64,000 nt of DNA from an uncultured Gammaproteobacteria bacterium (GTDB lineage: Bacteria > Patescibacteriota > Patescibacteriia > Magasanikbacterales > JBBTXJ01). Positions 1 to 25,711 of this stretch are shown here, piece after piece. The stretch is taken from positions 235-64,234 of the forward strand of contig CAZWRL010000001.1 of the NCBI GenBank assembly GCA_964636345.1. The letters run 5' to 3'. The position numbers were made by a program, and so were the translations under genes. The number at the start of each line of letters is the position of its first letter. Positions within the stretch are counted from its first letter, which is position 1. The notes under the pieces are model-generated. The model was not told the origin of the DNA. It did no database searches and worked only from the letters and a program-made list of their open reading frames with translations.

Positions 1-25
1 GTAAAAAGTAATAAAAATAAAAAAT

Positions 26-48
26 GCGGCCTTCTCTCCGAAGGCCGC
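26..48. terminator. GC-rich hairpin (gcggcctt...aaggccgc) downstream of the minus-strand lipoprotein gene 72..728
   Basis: Inverted repeat gcggccttctctccgaaggccgc seen directly, flanked by A/T runs. Confidence 0.35.
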
Positions 49-71
49 TTAGAATTCACATTTTCTGCGTT

Positions 72-728
72 CTATTGTTGTGTGAGAACGAAGTCACATT
101 GAACCCGGAAAAAGACGATGGGATCAACGGTGCCATCACCAAATTCGCCTTCGCAGGTGCCGGAGATTGTCTGGTGATCAAGAGACAAAATGCCGGTGAA
201 GGTGATCCAGTGTTTGCTTTCACCATAAGGAACATCACTGACATAACGGAAGCCAAGTGGCGGTGGATCTATGCGCCCATCGCGCCTCAGATCACCCCAG
301 AGCGGTCCGTCGCCACCTACATTTCCCCAGAGATTGCACCCGTCCTGGTTAAGTGCGGTTTCTGGTGTCAGCCAAAAATTTCGAGCAGCCATCGTGTTGT
401 TCGCAGGATCGAATTGGTAACCAAAGGTTTGCAGATTGCTGATTTCAATCGACCATATCCCCTGAAACCATTGTGGACAGGTGCAGATGCCAGGTTCCTT
501 CGCCCCGCACTCCAGCCCATCCAGACAGGTGTTGCTGGACGATCCGCCGCACGGCTCACCATCGGCGCCAGGCGGACGCACACCCTCTCCCTCGTTCGGA
601 GATCCTTCTCCCTCGTTGCCCTCGTTGCCGCCGTTGTCACTCCCGCCACTCGGCGTCTTGCTCTCCTCGCCACAGGCGGGGAGGAGAAGGCCCAACAGGG
701 CCATGCTCATCAGGTACTTTGACACCAT
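72..728 (-). CDS. Secreted lipoprotein, paralog 1 of 3; Asp-rich Ca-binding (thrombospondin-type-3-like DxDxDG) repeats and a Cys-rich C-terminal domain
   Basis: N-terminus MSMALLGLLLPACGEE is a signal peptide plus lipobox Cys. The N-terminal half is paralogous to ORFs 1557..2315 and 3590..4348, and the C-terminal half diverges. Confidence 0.6.
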   Translation of the reverse strand: MVSKYLMSMALLGLLLPACGEESKTPSGGSDNGGNEGNEGEGSPNEGEGVRPPGADGEPCGGSSSNTCLDGLECGAKEPGICTCPQWFQGIWSIEISNLQTFGYQFDPANNTMAARNFWLTPETALNQDGCNLWGNVGGDGPLWGDLRRDGRIDPPPLGFRYVSDVPYGESKHWITFTGILSLDHQTISGTCEGEFGDGTVDPIVFFRVQCDFVLTQQ

Positions 729-930
729 CTCTCTCCTCCTCGGTTTGTTGTTTCAATTAAACCACCTTTCGCGGGATTTGTCAATAGTATGTCATTGCGA
801 GGAGTCCCGATCACAATCGGGACGACGAAGCAATCTCATTAGATTGCTTCCCCCGGATCAGGTCCGGGGTCGCAATGACACTTTCGTAGAGGTCCATTGG
901 GTTTATGTTGCCTTCGCCGACCATGACCGC

Positions 931-1512
931 ATGCCAATAACCAACATCACCGTTGACTGGGATTTTGACAACCGCATCACCGGCGGTAACCCGGGTAAGT
1001 TCAAGAACAAAAAGACCCGGTGTTCCGCCAACAAAGCGGCAGCTTCTTGCGCGAATAATGTGAATGTCACCTGCTCAAAAGATACGGAATGTTCTGACAA
1101 TGGTCTTGGAGCATGTTCTGGCACTGCGGCTTCCTTTGGCAACTCGTCCGATGCCTGTGAAAAGGGATTCCATGAGTTCTTCGGTTCCTACAACTTCCAA
1201 CCCGATGATACCACCCACTGTAACTACAAGGTTGGAACAAACAACCCTGCCAATGTCACCACAGCCCAGCTCACCAGTTACGGCCTCTCCTTTGGAGACC
1301 GCTACTGCGCCTTTAAACCGAGAGTCATCATCATAGATAACTGGGGGTGGTGTAATGGGACGTGTGATGTGAATGGAGGGTGTTGGGAGAGTGACCGTGA
1401 TAGTGATTTAGCAAATTCTGGTCATTGTACCAATCCCAATCACGATGATTATAAGGCAGGAAAAGTTGGCACGCCATTTGATGGCTGGATAATTGTTGCG
1501 GAGCAGAAATAA
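931..1512 (+). CDS. Cys-rich hypothetical protein with a C-terminal DNWGWCNGT...GWIIVAEQK module; no recognisable signal peptide, so it may be 5'-truncated
   Basis: The 481..1512 ORF is antisense to the 72..728 gene before position 728, and the first ATG after that is at 931. The C-terminal ~90 aa are paralogous to the fragment 3169..3435. Confidence 0.4.
   Translation: MPITNITVDWDFDNRITGGNPGKFKNKKTRCSANKAAASCANNVNVTCSKDTECSDNGLGACSGTAASFGNSSDACEKGFHEFFGSYNFQPDDTTHCNYKVGTNNPANVTTAQLTSYGLSFGDRYCAFKPRVIIIDNWGWCNGTCDVNGGCWESDRDSDLANSGHCTNPNHDDYKAGKVGTPFDGWIIVAEQK
1247..1320. repeat. 74-bp direct repeat, copy 1, inside gene 931..1512; copy 2 is at 3169..3243
   Basis: Near-identical string ccaatgtcaccacagcccagctcaccagttacggcctctcctttggagaccgctactgcgcctt read at both sites. 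Confidence 0.85.
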
Positions 1513-1546
1513 AAAAAGCGGCTTCCCCCCAAAAGCCGCTTACGAA
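1513..1546. terminator. Bidirectional intrinsic terminator hairpin between convergent genes (aaaaaagcggcttcccccc aaaagccgctt)
   Basis: Stem gcggctt/aagccgc with an A-run upstream and T-rich sequence on the other strand. A homologous hairpin lies at 3556..3589. Confidence 0.5.
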
Positions 1547-1556
1547 CATGTACTAC

Positions 1557-2315
1557 CTACTCGCGCCGCGTGAGCACGAACGTACAGGTGATGGGAAAGA
1601 GATTCCGGCCGGTATGCCAGCCAGGATATTCCCCGGTGCAAGTTCCCTGGACGGATTTTCCATCCGCCGATACCTGTCCAGTTGACTGGAGTGAATGCTC
1701 CTGATTGTCGCCAGCATCCCAAGTCCGTTTGTAGGAAAAACTCAGGGAGGGTAGTTTGAGCTCCCCACTTCCGTCATCCCTTGCCCACAGAAACTGCAGA
1801 TCCGGACCTCGGATCACGCACCCATCCTGTTCAAAAGTAACCTCCTGCTCGCTCCAAAACTGCCGATCCAGCCCGGGAGCCATGAAATCGTACTCCTCCC
1901 CGTCGGTGCGCCGCACCTCCGTGAACTCCGCCCACCACGTCCCCTCCATCCACTGGGGACAGGTGCAGATGTCGGGTTTCTCTGCCTCGGCTCCGCACTG
2001 GAAACCATCCTGGCAGGTTCCGCCATCTCCGCAAAGCTCCGAGTCCGCTCCGGGAGGAATCCCATCCACCTTTCCGTCGCAGTCATTGTCCTTGCCGTCG
2101 GCAACCTCCTTGGCGCCCGGATTGATGCGCGGGTCGCTGTCGTCGCAGTCGTTCTGTACTTCTCCGCAGTAAGGCCAGAAATCTCCATCCTTGTCGTTGA
2201 TGTCGGCGTCGACGGAGGTGCACGCGCCTTCTTCTCCACCACCCGACGTCTTGCTCTCCTCGCCACAGGCGGGGAGCCCCAGGCCCACCAGGGCCATGAA
2301 AAGAACGTGCCGCAT
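1557..2315 (-). CDS. Secreted lipoprotein, paralog 2 of 3 (Ca-binding DxDxDG repeats, variable C-terminal domain)
   Basis: MALVGLGLPACGEE signal plus lipobox. About 125 N-terminal aa are almost identical to ORF 3590..4348; DNDCDGKVDG-type repeats. Confidence 0.65.
   Translation of the reverse strand: MRHVLFMALVGLGLPACGEESKTSGGGEEGACTSVDADINDKDGDFWPYCGEVQNDCDDSDPRINPGAKEVADGKDNDCDGKVDGIPPGADSELCGDGGTCQDGFQCGAEAEKPDICTCPQWMEGTWWAEFTEVRRTDGEEYDFMAPGLDRQFWSEQEVTFEQDGCVIRGPDLQFLWARDDGSGELKLPSLSFSYKRTWDAGDNQEHSLQSTGQVSADGKSVQGTCTGEYPGWHTGRNLFPITCTFVLTRRE
1930..2296. repeat. ~367-bp near-identical direct repeat (copy 1) covering the 5' coding half of lipoprotein paralog 2
   Basis: Copies 1930..2296 and 3961..4327 compared by eye; only a few mismatches. 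Confidence 0.8.
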
Positions 2316-2422
2316 CTTCTCTCCCTCCTCGGTTTTTTTGCCCCCCTTCTAGGGGGTGTTGTTTTTATTTCTCTACCTATTGTACTACAGGTAGCCATCC
2401 ATTAAACCATATACAGAGAGAT

Positions 2423-2451
2423 TTGTCAAGTGGTATTGATTGTGCTATCTT
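2423..2451 (+). promoter_or_regulatory. Candidate sigma70 promoter (TTGTCA, 17 bp, TATCTT) placing a transcription start ~2 nt before ATG 2460, i.e. a leaderless HEPN transcript
   Basis: Hexamers read directly; no SD before ATG 2460. Confidence 0.3.
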
Positions 2452-2459
2452 TACTGTGT

Positions 2460-2870
2460 ATGAAGGAAATAACGAGAAAGTGGGTTCTTTTTGCCCGGGC
2501 AGATCTTGATGCGGCAGAGCTCCAGTTTCGTTATGGCGGCAAACGCGGCAGTGCCTATCAGATTGCAGTGTTCCACTGTCATCAGGCAATCGAGAAGCTC
2601 TTGAAAGCACACTTCATTGAACAGGATAAAGAAGTGAGAAAGAATCATGATTTGATTCAGCTTCGGACAGAAATCAATTTAGAGTTTCCCAAAGAGCTTT
2701 CAGTAATAATTGAAAATCTGCATCCCCACTATCTGCTCCCTCGTTATCCGGATTTAGCATTTAGACCCGCATTTTCATTCTCGTACACCCGTTCAAACAC
2801 CCGAAAAATTTTATCTGACACCAGTAAATTATTCCTATGGCTCGAACGACTTTTAAAGAAAAAAAAATAA
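2460..2870 (+). CDS. HEPN-domain protein (toxin partner of a HEPN/MNT module); alternative GTG start at 2430
   Basis: HEPN-like features (CHQAIEKLLKA helix, LLPRYPD motif). Overlaps the downstream nucleotidyltransferase gene by 34 nt. Confidence 0.55.
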   Translation: MKEITRKWVLFARADLDAAELQFRYGGKRGSAYQIAVFHCHQAIEKLLKAHFIEQDKEVRKNHDLIQLRTEINLEFPKELSVIIENLHPHYLLPRYPDLAFRPAFSFSYTRSNTRKILSDTSKLFLWLERLLKKKK

Positions 2871-3169
2871 TCAGTGCCTATCAGAAAAGTTTAGAACCGT
2901 ATTTGCGGTTAGACGGCGTTTTCGTGTTTGGTAGTACCGCGCGTGGGGAACGGACGTCATCAAGCGATCTTGATGTTATTGTATTATCACGGGATTTTAA
3001 AAAAATGTCTTTCATGCGCCGCCTTCGATTATTGAACCGTCTTCGTTCGGGCCCAGCGCTTCATGTTCCTATGGATATTATCGGGTTTACGCCGGATGAG
3101 TTTAAATCATTGAAAACAAGCGAATCTCCAAATCTGCGACGGGTGTACCATGAGGCAAAAAAAATGTAG
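2837..3169 (+). CDS. Minimal nucleotidyltransferase (MNT, pol-beta superfamily); partner of the HEPN protein
   Basis: GS...DLDV motif: FGSTARGERTSSSDLDVIV. Confidence 0.7.
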   Translation: MARTTFKEKKIISAYQKSLEPYLRLDGVFVFGSTARGERTSSSDLDVIVLSRDFKKMSFMRRLRLLNRLRSGPALHVPMDIIGFTPDEFKSLKTSESPNLRRVYHEAKKM

Positions 3170-3435
3170 CCAATGTCACCACAGCCCAGCTCACCAGTTA
3201 CGGCCTCTCCTTTGGAGACCGCTACTGCGCCTTCAAACCGCGCGTGATTGTGGTGGATAACTGGGGATGGTGTAATGGGACGGATGCACAGGGTGCGATA
3301 AAAGGATATTGGGGCAATCCGGATGCGCAACAGGCGGAACATAATATTTGTACAAATAAAGATGCCGATGATTATATGGATGGTTTGATTGGAACTAAAT
3401 TTAGTGGATGGATTGTAGTGGCAGAGCAGAAATAG
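3169..3435 (+). pseudogene. Promoterless, start-less duplicate of the 3' module of gene 931..1512, with a divergent middle segment and conserved GWIVVAEQK end
   Basis: Homology begins at the last base of the MNT stop codon. The reading frame is open from 3154 but has no ATG; the only possible initiator is GTG 3244. A repeat shared with 1247..1320 precedes a variable block. Confidence 0.5.
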
Positions 3436-3555
3436 TTCTCATCCCGGACTCGCCGCGAGATCCGGGATCCAGTCAATTGATGGGTTCCGGGGGGGGGCCT
3501 GACGGGCCGAGCGAGCGCAGGCCCAGGAGTCCGGAATGACACATGCTGAAAAATA

Positions 3556-3589
3556 AAAAAGAGCGGCTCCCCCCAAAGCCGCTCGCGCA
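3556..3589. terminator. Bidirectional terminator hairpin (aaaaaagagcggctcccccc aaagccgctc), homologous to 1513..1546
   Basis: Inverted repeat and A/T runs seen directly. Confidence 0.45.
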
Positions 3590-4348
3590 CTAGTCACGCC
3601 GTGTGAGCGTGAAACTACACTCCACATTGAAGAAGGTATCTGGTCGCGTGGACACGTCCGGATACGTTCCGGAACAGGTGCCAGCAACAACCTGATTATC
3701 AGGAGCCATGTTACCCGTGAACGTAATCCACGCTTCGCCTTCAAGGCTACCCACTTCTCTCTTCCAGAGAAATCCGTTTGGTGGCGGATCCATCTTTCCT
3801 TCGCCAGCGTTTCCTGTTGAGAACGGCCAGTTTTCCGCTGGCCTGATCAAGGTACACCCATCCTGTTGGATGTCAACCTCTCGGTTCTCCCAGAACTGGC
3901 GAGAAATGTCGTGGGCGTTGAAGTCATACTCGTAGTCCACAGCATGGGCTGTAAACTCCACCCACCACGTCCCCTCCATCCACTGGGGACAGGTGCAGAT
4001 GTCGGGATTTTCCGTCTCCGCTCCGCACTGGAAACCATCCTGGCAGGTTCTGCCATCTCCGCAAAGCTCCGAGTCCGCTCCGGGAGGAATCCCATCCACC
4101 TTTCCGTCGCAGTCATTGTCCTTGCCGTCGGCAACCTCCTTGGCGCCCGGATTGATGCGCGGGTCGCTGTCGTCGCAGTCGTTCTGTACTTCTCCGCAGT
4201 AAGGCCAGAAATCTCCATCCTTGTCGTTGATGTCGGCGTCGACGGAGGTGCACGCGCCTTCTTCTCCACCACCCGACGTCTTGCTCTCCTCGCCACAGGC
4301 GGGGAGCCCCAGGCCCACCAGGGCCATGCTCATCAGGTACTTTGACAC
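3590..4348 (-). CDS. Secreted lipoprotein, paralog 3 of 3 (Ca-binding repeats, variable C-terminal domain)
   Basis: MSMALVGLGLPACGEE. N-terminal half ~identical to paralog 2; C-terminal half distinct. Confidence 0.65.
   Translation of the reverse strand: MSKYLMSMALVGLGLPACGEESKTSGGGEEGACTSVDADINDKDGDFWPYCGEVQNDCDDSDPRINPGAKEVADGKDNDCDGKVDGIPPGADSELCGDGRTCQDGFQCGAETENPDICTCPQWMEGTWWVEFTAHAVDYEYDFNAHDISRQFWENREVDIQQDGCTLIRPAENWPFSTGNAGEGKMDPPPNGFLWKREVGSLEGEAWITFTGNMAPDNQVVAGTCSGTYPDVSTRPDTFFNVECSFTLTRRD
3961..4327. repeat. ~367-bp near-identical direct repeat (copy 2) covering the 5' coding half of lipoprotein paralog 3
   Basis: Matches 1930..2296. Confidence 0.8.
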
Positions 4349-4528
4349 CGTCTCTCTCCTCCCCGGTTTTGTTGGATTCTATCGCCCTGCTTCGCTAAAG
4401 CTACGCAGGACCCCAGAATGACGTTGTTTTTTGTTACCACCGTAGCCCCAGTAAATCACAGACGGGGGAGTTAGTCAAGAGCCAATAAGTCGACGGTGAT
4501 TTACTTTTAAGAATTTGTGGATAATTTA

Positions 4529-4882
4529 TTAGGTAAAGAAGCGATCATTATAATATCTTTTTTGCGGTGAGAAGGTGCGGTGATAAAACTTTCCGAGCCG
4601 CTCAAGATCGTGTGGTTTTAGATTAAGTCCCACTTCCTCTTTTATCTCACGCAGCGCGGCTTGCAAATAGGTCTCTCCCTTGCGCACATGTCCGGCAACT
4701 AAATGGTCAAGATAACCCCCGTCACGCTTTTGCACTAAAATTTGTCTAGCCGCATTGATTAAGTACGCTGCGATCTCCCGATGTCGCAGTTGTTTGCCAT
4801 GTATGATCTGGGAAGGAAGATGCTGAATTACGCGATCATTTTTGTCCACCACCGGGATGAGTTCGAGCATAGGAGATGCCAC
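4529..4882 (-). CDS. Nudix hydrolase
   Basis: Nudix box GHVRKGETYLQAALREIKEEVGL (GX5EX7REUXEEXGU). Confidence 0.75.
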   Translation of the reverse strand: MASPMLELIPVVDKNDRVIQHLPSQIIHGKQLRHREIAAYLINAARQILVQKRDGGYLDHLVAGHVRKGETYLQAALREIKEEVGLNLKPHDLERLGKFYHRTFSPQKRYYNDRFFT

Positions 4883-5021: not shown

Positions 5022-5906
5022 ATGAGAGAAAAACTCGATGATCTTTTACATGCGCTTCAGGCGGCGCAAACGGCGGTAATACCTTATCTTGGAAATGGCT
5101 CGGTATTTGATATCGACGCAGCTGCAACAAACGCGTTGCGAGCCACGCTTCAATCTTGCACATGGGGCATGCGTGTAGCAATTGGCGAGGGGCGCAACGA
5201 CGATATGCCGGGACTTTTTCGTGATGAGTTCCTTGGCAACGGTCCGTTCTTGCACGAGATTGCGGTTGACCCGATTGATGGCACAACTCCTGCTGCTAAT
5301 CTGGGCATGCAACAACAATGGAAACAAGGGCAAGTCGTGAGTGCGCTTGCGCTTGCGCCCATAGGTACGATTTATTATCCTTCGGGATCTGAACGGCGCA
5401 TGGAACGTATCGCCGCGCCAGGCAAGGGGTATGAGCTATCGCTGGATGCGTCTCCAGCCGAGAATGTGGAGCGTATCGCGGCAGCGCTTCGCTGTGCGCG
5501 TCAAGAACTCACCGCAATTGTAGTGTCACCGCATCGCAACGGTGCGTTGATTGAGGAGTTGAAGAAAATCGGCTTGCCGATTCTGACGCCGAAGTGCGGG
5601 CTTGGTCTTGAGCTTGCGGCGTTCATTCCACGTCTTCTAGATAGGCATCACATTGTCTATGGCATTGGCGGCGAGCCAGAAACAGTGGTGTTGGCCGCGG
5701 CGGTGCGTGCGAGCGGTGGAACCCTTCTCGCGCGATTGTGGTGTCTGGACGAGGAAGAACGCCAAGCATTTGTCACAGTCGGTACGGATGTCACCCGCGT
5801 GTATCAAGAGAATGAACTAGTGCGAGGATCTTGCGGTGTTGTAGCGGTAGGAATTACGGATGGACCAATTCCTACCGAAGGCGTGGTTCTTAGCGAGGAA
5901 AAGTGA
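5022..5906 (+). CDS. glpX: Fructose-1,6-bisphosphatase class II (GlpX-like)
   Basis: GlpX-family motifs AIGEGR and HEIAVDPIDGTT (compare VDIAVDPIEGT); ~290 aa. Confidence 0.7.
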   Translation: MREKLDDLLHALQAAQTAVIPYLGNGSVFDIDAAATNALRATLQSCTWGMRVAIGEGRNDDMPGLFRDEFLGNGPFLHEIAVDPIDGTTPAANLGMQQQWKQGQVVSALALAPIGTIYYPSGSERRMERIAAPGKGYELSLDASPAENVERIAAALRCARQELTAIVVSPHRNGALIEELKKIGLPILTPKCGLGLELAAFIPRLLDRHHIVYGIGGEPETVVLAAAVRASGGTLLARLWCLDEEERQAFVTVGTDVTRVYQENELVRGSCGVVAVGITDGPIPTEGVVLSEEK

Positions 5907-5928: not shown

Positions 5929-6561
5929 TTATTTTTTGAAAAGTTTAATTTTCCGGAAGATATGGGTAACTGGGGGCGTGAAGTGAAGACGCGCCATTTG
6001 AGATTTTGTATACCACCGCAGGTGTATAGATTCATGCGGGTTTTTCTTGATCTTTCCTTTCGCATGGATAAGGTAGAGGCGCCAGAAATGCTTATTCACA
6101 CCCCGGGTGCATGGATCTGGATCAATCAGGCCTTGAAAAATGAGTTGTTTATCTTTAATAGTAAGTCCGGTCTCCTCTTTTACTTCGCGCGCGAGCGCCT
6201 TAATCATTGTTTCATGTTTATCAACGTGGCCGCCGATAGTGGCATAGAGGAATGGCCAGTGGGTACGCTTGGAGATAAGATATTTTCCATTTTGTTCAAT
6301 GAGCGCGCCCGCAGAAAAATGAATTGGACCTTGCGCGGTATGGCGCACCTTAGTCGGCCCCGTCAGCTCTATAAAACGTGGATTGGTCTTACCGCACGCA
6401 CGACAGTGAAACAGTAAATACTTACCTTTGTGAAGCACTTTTAGCTTAGGTGATTTACAGATAAAACATCCGCGAATTTCTTTAGTCATACAAATAGATT
6501 GTGCCTTGTACATCCAAAAAAAGAAAGGGCTGAGTAGGCCCTTGGAGAAGAACGTATGCAC
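5929..6561 (-). CDS. Nudix hydrolase with an N-terminal CxxC...CxxC zinc ribbon
   Basis: CFICKSP...CRACGK zinc ribbon, then Nudix box GGHVDKHETMIKALAREVKEETGL. Confidence 0.7.
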   Translation of the reverse strand: MHTFFSKGLLSPFFFWMYKAQSICMTKEIRGCFICKSPKLKVLHKGKYLLFHCRACGKTNPRFIELTGPTKVRHTAQGPIHFSAGALIEQNGKYLISKRTHWPFLYATIGGHVDKHETMIKALAREVKEETGLTIKDKQLIFQGLIDPDPCTRGVNKHFWRLYLIHAKGKIKKNPHESIHLRWYTKSQMARLHFTPPVTHIFRKIKLFKK

Positions 6562-22857: not shown

Positions 22858-22947
22858 TGGCGGAGGAGGTGAGATTCGAACTCACGAGGGCTGTTAGACC
22901 CTACCTCGTTAGCAGTGAGGCGCACTAGACCACTATGCGACTCCTCC
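22858..22947 (-). tRNA. tRNA-Ser (anticodon GCU), long variable arm, encoded CCA
   Basis: Reverse complement folds as acceptor GGAGGAG/CTCCTCC, anticodon loop CUGCUAA, long extra arm and T-loop GTTCGAATC. Confidence 0.8.
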
Positions 22948-25620: not shown

Positions 25621-25711
25621 TGGCGGTGGGGGTGAGATTCGAACTCACGGTACCCTTTGGGGGTACGACAGTTTTCAAGACTGTTGCCATCAACCACTCG
25701 GCCACCCCACC
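25621..25711 (-). tRNA. tRNA-Ser (anticodon UGA), long variable arm, encoded CCA
   Basis: Reverse complement GGTGGGGTGGCCGAGTGG...anticodon loop CUUGAAA...GTTCGAATC...CCCCACC-G-CCA. Confidence 0.8.

Follow-up and report, generated by a model that had tools for sequence, protein, structure and literature searches.

Giant-gene 3' fragments linked to variable lipoprotein genes in a cassette array of a Magasanikbacterales genome

We analyzed a stretch of 64,000 nt, referred to here as the window, from contig CAZWRL010000001.1 of assembly GCA_964636345.1, a genome placed by GTDB in the Patescibacteriota (Magasanikbacterales, JBBTXJ01). Its first 4,500 positions hold three minus-strand genes for predicted lipoproteins, named A (72-728), B (1557-2315) and C (3590-4348), together with two plus-strand fragments, X1 (about 916-1512) and X2 (3170-3435), which show homology to the final ~600 nt (X1) and ~265 nt (X2) of giant genes in relatives. 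A third copy of this giant-gene end, X0, lies immediately to the left of the window. Each plus-strand end fragment is convergent with a complete minus-strand lipoprotein gene, and we call such a unit a cassette. An earlier sequence-only reading had described the locus as a tandem array of three lipoprotein paralogs. The three paralogs are indeed there, but giant-gene fragments and a HEPN/MNT gene pair lie between them, and what varies is the cassette, giant-gene 3' fragment included, where the lipoprotein gene by itself had been supposed to vary.

The three lipoproteins belong to one family, as was recognized from the start, and each has a signal peptide and a lipobox-like L-P-A-C. Their N-termini consist of a short basic n-region and a hydrophobic core followed by this motif, in which the proline at position -2 is atypical for a lipobox; canonical lipoboxes occur in homologues (LVAGC in P0007, GMAGC in P0003). 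Gene A encodes 218 aa, in which the signal peptide and LLPAC motif are followed by a GEGEG linker, a small cysteine-rich segment and a C-terminal beta-barrel half of its own type. Genes B and C, the latter with a GTG start, encode 252 aa each and carry one MopE motif (PF11617); their variable barrel halves lie at ~1557-1920 in B, the partner of X1, and at ~3590-3950 in C, the partner of X2, where the barrel half is of a third type.

All three genes have a strong GGAGG ribosome-binding site. Promoter-like sites can be read on the minus strand upstream of A (756-784; TTGACA, 17 nt, TGgTTTAAT), of B (2401-2429, homologous to that of A) and of C (4450-4478; TTGACT, 17 nt, TTTACT), and a putative promoter of the form TTGACA, 17 nt, TGnTTTAAT is kept upstream of every lipoprotein gene of the family. 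Every lipoprotein open reading frame (ORF) of the family is full length unless a contig end cuts it. Terminator hairpins, all G+C-rich, are found at 15-55 (stem 26-48) between the X0 stop and gene A, at 1516-1541, common to X1 and gene B, and at 3561-3584, 3' of gene C. Their homology, also part of the sequence-only reading, holds for all three. The first is flanked by an A-run on one side and a T-run on the other and is potentially bidirectional.

The 5' halves of B and C are nearly identical. Positions 1930-2296 and 3960-4326, at an offset of 2030, differ by 7 mismatches in 367 nt (98.1% identity), and the longest exact run, 277 bp, extends over 2022-2298 = 4052-4328, which defines two copies of a homology flank at 1930-2298 and 3960-4328 (98% identical). 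A ~367-bp block of this kind had been reported earlier and is real, yet its second interval had been given one base off, as 3961-4327, where identity at that register is 28%. Likewise, the ~98% identity then ascribed to all three 5' halves holds for B and C and fails for A, whose 5' half is only ~60-75% identical to theirs; gene A overall is 41-47% identical to B and C. Gene C is itself a mosaic: its start and the 104 nt upstream match A at 90%, and the following 367 nt match B at 98%.

The C-terminal ~120 aa, previously taken to be unrelated between copies, proved to be homologous, with 36% identity between B and C (E = 5e-23) and 35% between A and C (E = 2e-25). The motifs QDGC, GTCxG and CxFxLT are invariant across these halves, which share one predicted beta-barrel. 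AlphaFold2 modeling of C with the family alignment gave a confident C-terminal domain (residues ~120-252, pLDDT 82-96) of antiparallel strands and one short helix, with low confidence for the N-terminal linker and the cysteine-rich segment. The 3' half of the lipoprotein genes is thus confidently predicted to code for a variable eight-stranded beta-barrel, and the modeled barrel of C resembles small protein- or ligand-binding barrels. The Ca-binding repeat region that had been thought common to the three copies comes down to a single PF11617 (Cu-binding_MopE) motif in B and C (43.9 bits, E = 2.8e-11; Pfam cut-off 27). A PF11617 scan of gene A gave no match, and a Gly/Glu linker of the GEGEG type stands in its place. 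The motif is an optional linker insert, confined, other than in C, to B-type variants (P0002, P0011, P0012). One significant motif copy each in B and C is a likeness to PF11617 MopE lipoproteins, but the motif is not the defining feature of the present family.

Only 9 proteins matched the lipoprotein in a collection of 5.8 billion sequences, two of them placeable on long contigs (L002 and L004), and a metagenome scan with the lipoprotein profile yielded 5 loci. The exact gene A protein is present on 5 other metagenome contigs, and a look-up of the exact gene C protein gave no record. The remaining 59 kb of the window contained no additional family members when searched.

In L002 and in L004, a metagenome-assembled genome (MAG) named Candidatus Magasanikbacteria at NCBI that shows synteny to the window over 6 kb (~83% nucleotide identity), a single lipoprotein gene is convergent with a giant gene of 2,683 aa (L002) or 2,640 aa (L004). 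The L002 giant protein has a hydrophobic N-terminal signal or anchor and is cysteine-rich throughout. Neither giant protein matched Pfam, and that of L002 also had no NCBIfam or PDB sequence match. Directly upstream of the giant gene in both relatives is a gene for a conserved 208-aa protein with a bacterial TSP3 (calcium-binding type) repeat (L002 17132-17758, L004 18711-19337), beyond which lies another large ORF; the 208-aa protein may be part of the same surface apparatus, and the window does not extend to the equivalent region. On the window side, five short contigs from other samples, 99.9-100% identical to window positions 1-1320 and extending ~300 bp further left, contain X0, with its stop codon 3-5 nt to the left of window position 1. 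Because of the synteny with the relatives, X0 is probably the end of a full-length giant gene. A search with the C-terminal 784 aa of a relative's giant protein found one fragment, from an unrelated sample.

Alignment of the giant-protein C-termini (CT) distinguishes three parts: about 155 conserved residues (MPIRNITVDW ... KPRVIIIDNWGWCN), a hypervariable tip of 32-44 residues that follows DNWGWCN and keeps conserved cysteine positions in most types, and a conserved end, GTxFxGW(I/V)(I/V)VAEQK. X1, with ~197 codons, comprises conserved CT sequence and a tip at ~1354-1464, and ends in GWIIVAEQK. The shorter X2, with 88 codons, is 92-100% identical to X0 and X1 over its first ~110 nt and thereafter has its own tip. 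The stretch common to X1 and X2 is 87-100% identical, and both terminate in GWI(I/V)VAEQK and a stop codon. No signal peptide, Shine-Dalgarno sequence or promoter-like site was found for either fragment. The collection searched has no record of the exact X1 protein, and X1 was apparently not called as a gene in the MAG; X2 is recorded only as a 63-aa "protein", P0052 (ORF 3244-3435, plus strand), an annotation artefact of the orphan fragment.

A profile search of 1.84 billion representative proteins placed the CT domain in 412 clusters, most of them of 2.6-4.3-kaa proteins with the domain at the extreme C-terminus, and several stand-alone ORFs of ~180-230 aa start exactly at MPI or MPL. A CT profile scan of GTDB genomes gave only 4 distant loci. 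Two distant giant proteins from Patescibacteria (L024 and L026), in which the CT is 28-30% identical, are also followed directly after the stop by a convergent lipoprotein gene; in hhalign comparisons of the family profile with these two lipoproteins the match was confined to the signal peptide, with no other homology detected. Viral contigs searched with the lipoprotein and CT profiles gave no relatives for either, and none of the lipoprotein body, the CT domain and the giant protein could be assigned to a Pfam, NCBIfam or PADLOC family.

Orphan CT fragments are not peculiar to the window. At least 8 were found in several lineages, most of them retaining the tip cysteines, and all keep an open frame to the native stop. 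In four lineages the orphans begin within ~3 codons of the motif RFF(G/A/S)WAD..RMPI. The sister-lineage contig L012 carries, in order, a lipoprotein gene, a 192-aa orphan CT, the lipoprotein gene P0003 and a giant gene, and lipoprotein-orphan-lipoprotein-CT arrays are present in L013, L014 and L029. The orphans in these four contigs each adjoin an intact lipoprotein gene, as X1 and X2 do.

A sliding identity profile of the window cassettes shows how variation is distributed within them. X0 and X1 agree at every position for at least 110 bp (100% identity), and X2 matches at 92-100% over 1246-1300. From ~1330 to ~1920, across the tip, the terminator and the lipoprotein 3' half, identity falls to 40-60%, after which B and C are 100% identical. 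The tip and the barrel half therefore form one contiguous variable block of ~600 bp between homogenized flanks. The 98% B/C block is one of its two homology flanks; the other is the conserved CT region of ~460 bp, which is identical in some copies and ~98% identical in others.

Within this block, particular barrels are found with particular tips. The P0003 barrel is always beside a GGSGQAQDV-type tip (L012, L013, L014), the P0004 barrel beside a DAAAG-type tip (L013, L014, L029) and the L012a barrel beside a SEGGG-type tip (L012, L029). Among 10 distinct (non-duplicate) cassettes, pairwise identities of tips and barrel halves were correlated (Mantel r = 0.46, permutation p = 0.003; Spearman 0.33, p = 0.02). 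The window pair C/X2 and the cassette of L022 are reciprocal best matches on both measures, with 69% identity in the barrel and 63% in the tip, compared with 43-45% (barrel) and 24-43% (tip) between C and A or B; in the conserved CT stretch, L022 shares only ~63-65% identity with X0 and X1. Similarly, L031 is the best match of B in both tip (66%) and barrel (57%), and the two loci are only ~68% identical in DNA. Since paralogs within the genome are less alike than same-type cassettes across lineages, the types must be older than the lineages or move between them, and they are not products of divergence after a recent duplication.

Evidence for recombination in populations comes from short-read metagenome contigs. 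Three of them (L001, L010, L011), assembled from other samples, match the window at 100% on either side of a junction that joins the upstream region and leader of C to the variable half of B and X1. This C-5'/B-3' hybrid skips 2,030 bp, comprising the C barrel half, X2, the HEPN/MNT pair and the B leader, and its switch is located in a 31-nt interval beyond the exact repeat. Contig L027 (JGI) is 100% identical to window positions 4174..2176 and covers the segment that the hybrid omits, so the three-cassette form is independently confirmed. One lipoprotein of L029 is identical to P0003 in its first 177 residues and to P0004 in its last 106, with the P0004 tip type downstream; a chimeric assembly is unlikely here because the parents have only ~33 identical nt at the junction. 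The giant genes of L002 and L012 are 99.985% identical over 6,465 bp, until ~40 nt before the tip, and then continue into different tip and lipoprotein cassettes. Within the conserved CT region, cassettes with different tips share blocks of single-nucleotide polymorphisms (SNPs) in a patchy pattern. The P0006 cassette (L003) and L012 co-occur in one sample.

The sequence-only reading had suggested looking for recombinant junctions in metagenomic data, and the contigs contain candidates, namely the C/B hybrid in three assemblies and the P0003/P0004 chimera in L029. It had also proposed recent duplication with gene conversion at a variable surface-protein locus. Recombination fits the mosaic gene C, the hybrid and the chimera, but the divergence of the C-termini is better accounted for by old types that span lineages than by a recent duplication. 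The arrangement of the window itself is matched at ~100% identity by L027 (4174..2176), L005-L009 (1..1320) and L010 (12535..3951). With its junctions recovered in independent metagenome contigs, it is not a one-off assembly product.

Other elements lie at the cassette junctions. A plus-strand pair of genes for a HEPN protein (2430-2870; PF05168) and an MNT-type nucleotidyltransferase (2837-3169; PF01909) occupies 2430-3169, exactly between the promoter-like site of gene B and X2, and is also present in contig L027. It takes the place of a hairpin element and of ~330 nt at the start of the CT fragment, both of which the X1 cassette has. The pair is toxin-antitoxin-like, and the MNT protein also matches the PADLOC candidate families PDC-M05A and PDC-S09. 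The hairpin element (790-880, plus strand), beside the 5' edge of X1, is a GC-rich sequence of 91 nt with three hairpins closed by a 10-bp stem (minimum free energy -66 kcal/mol, z -6.5). The stem is GTCATTGCGA...TCGCAATGAC, and there is one copy in the window. It looks like an element of the repetitive extragenic palindrome or miniature inverted-repeat transposable element (REP/MITE) type; Rfam returned nothing credible for it or for the terminators. Partial relatives are found upstream of lipoprotein promoters in L002 and L012-L014, and other hairpin-rich GC spacers lie at cassette junctions in the window (3436-3560 and 4380-4420), in L020 and in L029. In two contigs from Hainich groundwater, L020 (353-2636) and L021, two CT fragments of a distant member enclose a 58-aa ORF together with genes for a radical SAM/SPASM enzyme and a 176-aa protein. 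The set resembles those for ribosomally synthesized and post-translationally modified peptides (RiPPs) and, inserted in a cassette array, is comparable to the HEPN/MNT pair of the window.

Beyond the array, two minus-strand NUDIX genes (4529-4882 and 5929-6561), which share a 37-nt stretch of 73% identity, flank a gene for a GlpX-type fructose-1,6-bisphosphatase (5022-5906). Two tRNA-Ser genes with anticodons GCT and TGA are located on the minus strand at 22858-22947 and 25621-25711.

The locus resembles the orphan arrays of contact-dependent growth inhibition (CDI) and Rhs systems as well as silent-cassette loci, but it is a member of neither group. CDI and Rhs loci are known to contain arrays of truncated CT fragments that lack initiation signals and are each paired with an intact, separately expressible partner, and a deletion between repeats, as described for a cdiA locus of Yersinia pestis, can attach an orphan to the main gene (Poole et al. 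2011, PMC3150448). Shared with these systems are a very large secreted or surface protein with a polymorphic extreme C-terminus, downstream 5'-truncated CT fragments that have conserved sequence in common with the main gene and an intact partner each, and modules that one strain carries on the main gene and another as an orphan. The differences are also substantial. There are no CdiB/two-partner secretion (TPS), FHA, VENN, YD-repeat or PxxxxDPxGL features and no recognizable toxin domain here; the variable region measures 32-44 aa after ~155 conserved residues, compared with a CT toxin domain of ~100-300 aa; and the partner is a convergent lipoprotein, half conserved among types, in a bacterium of the Candidate Phyla Radiation (CPR).

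Neisseria pilE/pilS and Borrelia vlsE/vls (e.g. PMC2632889) likewise combine a full-length expressed gene, whose counterpart here is seen in relatives and as the last ~300 bp at X0, with nearby truncated copies that lack a promoter, and have conserved flanks around a variable core, where the patchy SNP mosaics of the present locus would suggest segmental conversion. Unlike in those systems, only 2 spare cassettes are present here, each with a complete co-varying lipoprotein gene, and the host is an environmental groundwater organism with no adaptive immune system to evade. In the G segment of phage Mu and the C segment of P1, the variable end of a fibre is exchanged together with a small matching partner by inversion, catalyzed by the Gin or Cin invertase. 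Exchange of a variable C-terminal end and a small partner as one DNA unit would be a point in common, but the repeats of the window are direct, and the flanking genes that were scanned encode no invertase. A Gin/Cin-type invertible segment was rejected as an explanation: all CT copies repeat in direct orientation, the only inverted repeats are short ones with mismatches, and the flanking genes scanned contain no recombinase domain. The target of a diversity-generating retroelement was rejected as well, as differences between the copies involve every base type as well as indels and no reverse transcriptase was present among the neighboring ORFs scanned (HEPN, MNT, NUDIX and GlpX-type fructose-1,6-bisphosphatase).

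The interpretation that we favor, with a probability of roughly 0.6, is that window positions 1-4500 form the distal portion of an array of cassettes joined to the 3' end of a giant gene (~2,650 aa) for a cysteine-rich secreted protein, and that recombination swaps a matched pair of tip and lipoprotein. Each cassette combines a copy of the last ~200 giant-gene codons with a complete lipoprotein gene that has a promoter-like site, a Shine-Dalgarno sequence and a terminator of its own. Homologous recombination in the flanks would move a tip together with its matching barrel, and two routes can be envisaged: a deletion between direct CT repeats could load X1 or X2 onto the giant gene, or a two-sided gene conversion could replace the ~600-bp variable block. 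The orphan CT fragments would then be silent spare tips, and the lipoprotein genes would all remain expressible.

Under this model of cassette exchange, each barrel would bind the tip of its own cassette at the cell surface, whether to block it in the manner of an immunity protein, to recognize it or to dock it at the membrane. We infer such binding because of the tip-barrel linkage and co-variation, the persistence of types across lineages, the surface location implied by the signal sequences and the convergent lipoprotein position kept in distant members. An immunity- or recognition-like pair seems preferable to simple docking, by analogy, because the array keeps each lipoprotein gene intact with its own promoter and truncates the giant fragments, as CDI/Rhs orphans do.

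Several observations weigh against this interpretation. The full-length giant gene of this genome would lie outside the window, and the assignment of X0 as its end relies on synteny. The co-variation is significant but modest and was obtained with 10 cassettes, where shared ancestry or joint transfer of adjacent DNA would suffice without binding. An AlphaFold2 model of the CT domain, built from a 6-sequence alignment, had a pLDDT of 42 and was unusable. The small variable region and the lack of a toxin signature leave an immunity-like pairing less certain. Two-sided conversion into the cassette beside the giant gene would find little homology on the gene A side because of the low similarity of its 5' half to B and C. 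Finally, the C/B hybrid, the body-to-tip joins of L012 and L002 and the SNP mosaics may represent assembler paths and not haplotypes.

This last concern can be taken further, to the idea that the three copies and their variants are all artefacts of short-read assembly through repeats. The repeats (277 bp exact, ~460 bp in CT) are longer than short reads and k-mers, so some joins may be assembler choices, and L005-L010 and L027 all end inside repeats. Yet every unique window junction was recovered at ~100% identity in assemblies of other samples, the window order is the only linear order that uses all unique segments, and distinct variable blocks cannot stem from misassembly, which makes a wholesale artefact very improbable. 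Real copies could still have a simple origin in plain segmental duplication, occurring twice, and decay, with X1 and X2 as dead pseudogenes, occasional conversion homogenizing the lipoprotein 5' halves and no function for the cassettes. The fragments are truncated and without start signals, X2 has been cut further by the HEPN/MNT insertion, no recombinase is encoded in the flanking genes scanned, and direct repeats by themselves account for deletions like the hybrid. Such decay nevertheless appears unlikely to us, as the greater similarity of C to L022 than to A and B indicates that the types predate this genome, at least 8 orphans have open frames and mostly retain the tip cysteines, the 5' edge of the orphans is nearly the same in four lineages, and the variation is sharply bounded by homogenized flanks.

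Two further explanations do assign a function to the variation. The sequence-only reading regarded the lipoproteins themselves as variable antigens, diversified by duplication and conversion, with the plus-strand sequences being irrelevant. This is consistent with mosaic lipoprotein genes that have differing combinations of N- and C-terminal halves, with the lipoprotein signal sequences and with the intact promoter-like sites. It leaves unexplained the fixed linkage of C-half and tip, the retention of open frames in giant-gene fragments and a variable block spanning both genes, and we regard it as improbable, more so than duplication and decay. The other is a more specific version of the cassette-exchange model, a strict polymorphic effector/immunity system in which the giant protein is a contact-dependent antagonist with a toxic or target-binding tip and the lipoproteins provide surface immunity. 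The anatomy of CDI/Rhs loci with truncated CT fragments lacking initiation signals and an intact, expressible partner (PMC3150448) fits well, and so do the occurrence of the same types in different lineages, a cassette that accompanies the main gene in one assembly but is an orphan in a second, and non-homologous lipoproteins at the same position in distant members. On the other hand, no known toxin domain would fit into a variable part of 32-44 residues, searches of the giant protein, the CT and the lipoprotein gave no toxin, YD-repeat, TPS or other Pfam, NCBIfam or PADLOC family, the partners are homologous and half conserved within the clade, unlike typical immunity proteins, and the partner gene is convergent and not co-directional. 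We consider this strict version doubtful, if somewhat less so than the alternatives without an effector.

Attachment to other cells is the presumed lifestyle of CPR bacteria, and the best-known mechanism of variation in the group is the diversity-generating retroelement. To our knowledge, hardly any of the molecules that mediate or diversify their contacts have been described, and full-text literature searches on CPR giant proteins, cassette variation and polymorphic toxins in Patescibacteria turned up no account of a system like this one. The present locus points to a second route of variation in CPR, namely recombinational exchange of a matched giant-protein tip and lipoprotein barrel, and it draws attention to a giant-protein family that has ~412 public clusters and carries no annotation. 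If tip and barrel prove to be cognate partners, the boundary RFFxWAD..MPI / DNWGWCN would define the domain for chimera engineering, and the locus would serve as a warning for MAG annotation, where such fragments are missed or, like the 63-aa ORF at 3244-3435, annotated as very small hypothetical ORFs. A broader possibility, which we put forward tentatively, is that this is a lock-and-key recognition system of CPR/Patescibacteria, in which an exchangeable tip of the giant protein is read by a matching lipoprotein barrel. Silent tips and active lipoprotein genes would then make up a switchable or protective repertoire whose many types have long been maintained across lineages, in the manner of self/non-self or effector/immunity loci, and the system may govern cell-cell or symbiont-host contact of these ultra-small episymbionts. 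Should the pairs be cognate binders, they would provide a handle on strain-level recognition or antagonism in CPR populations.

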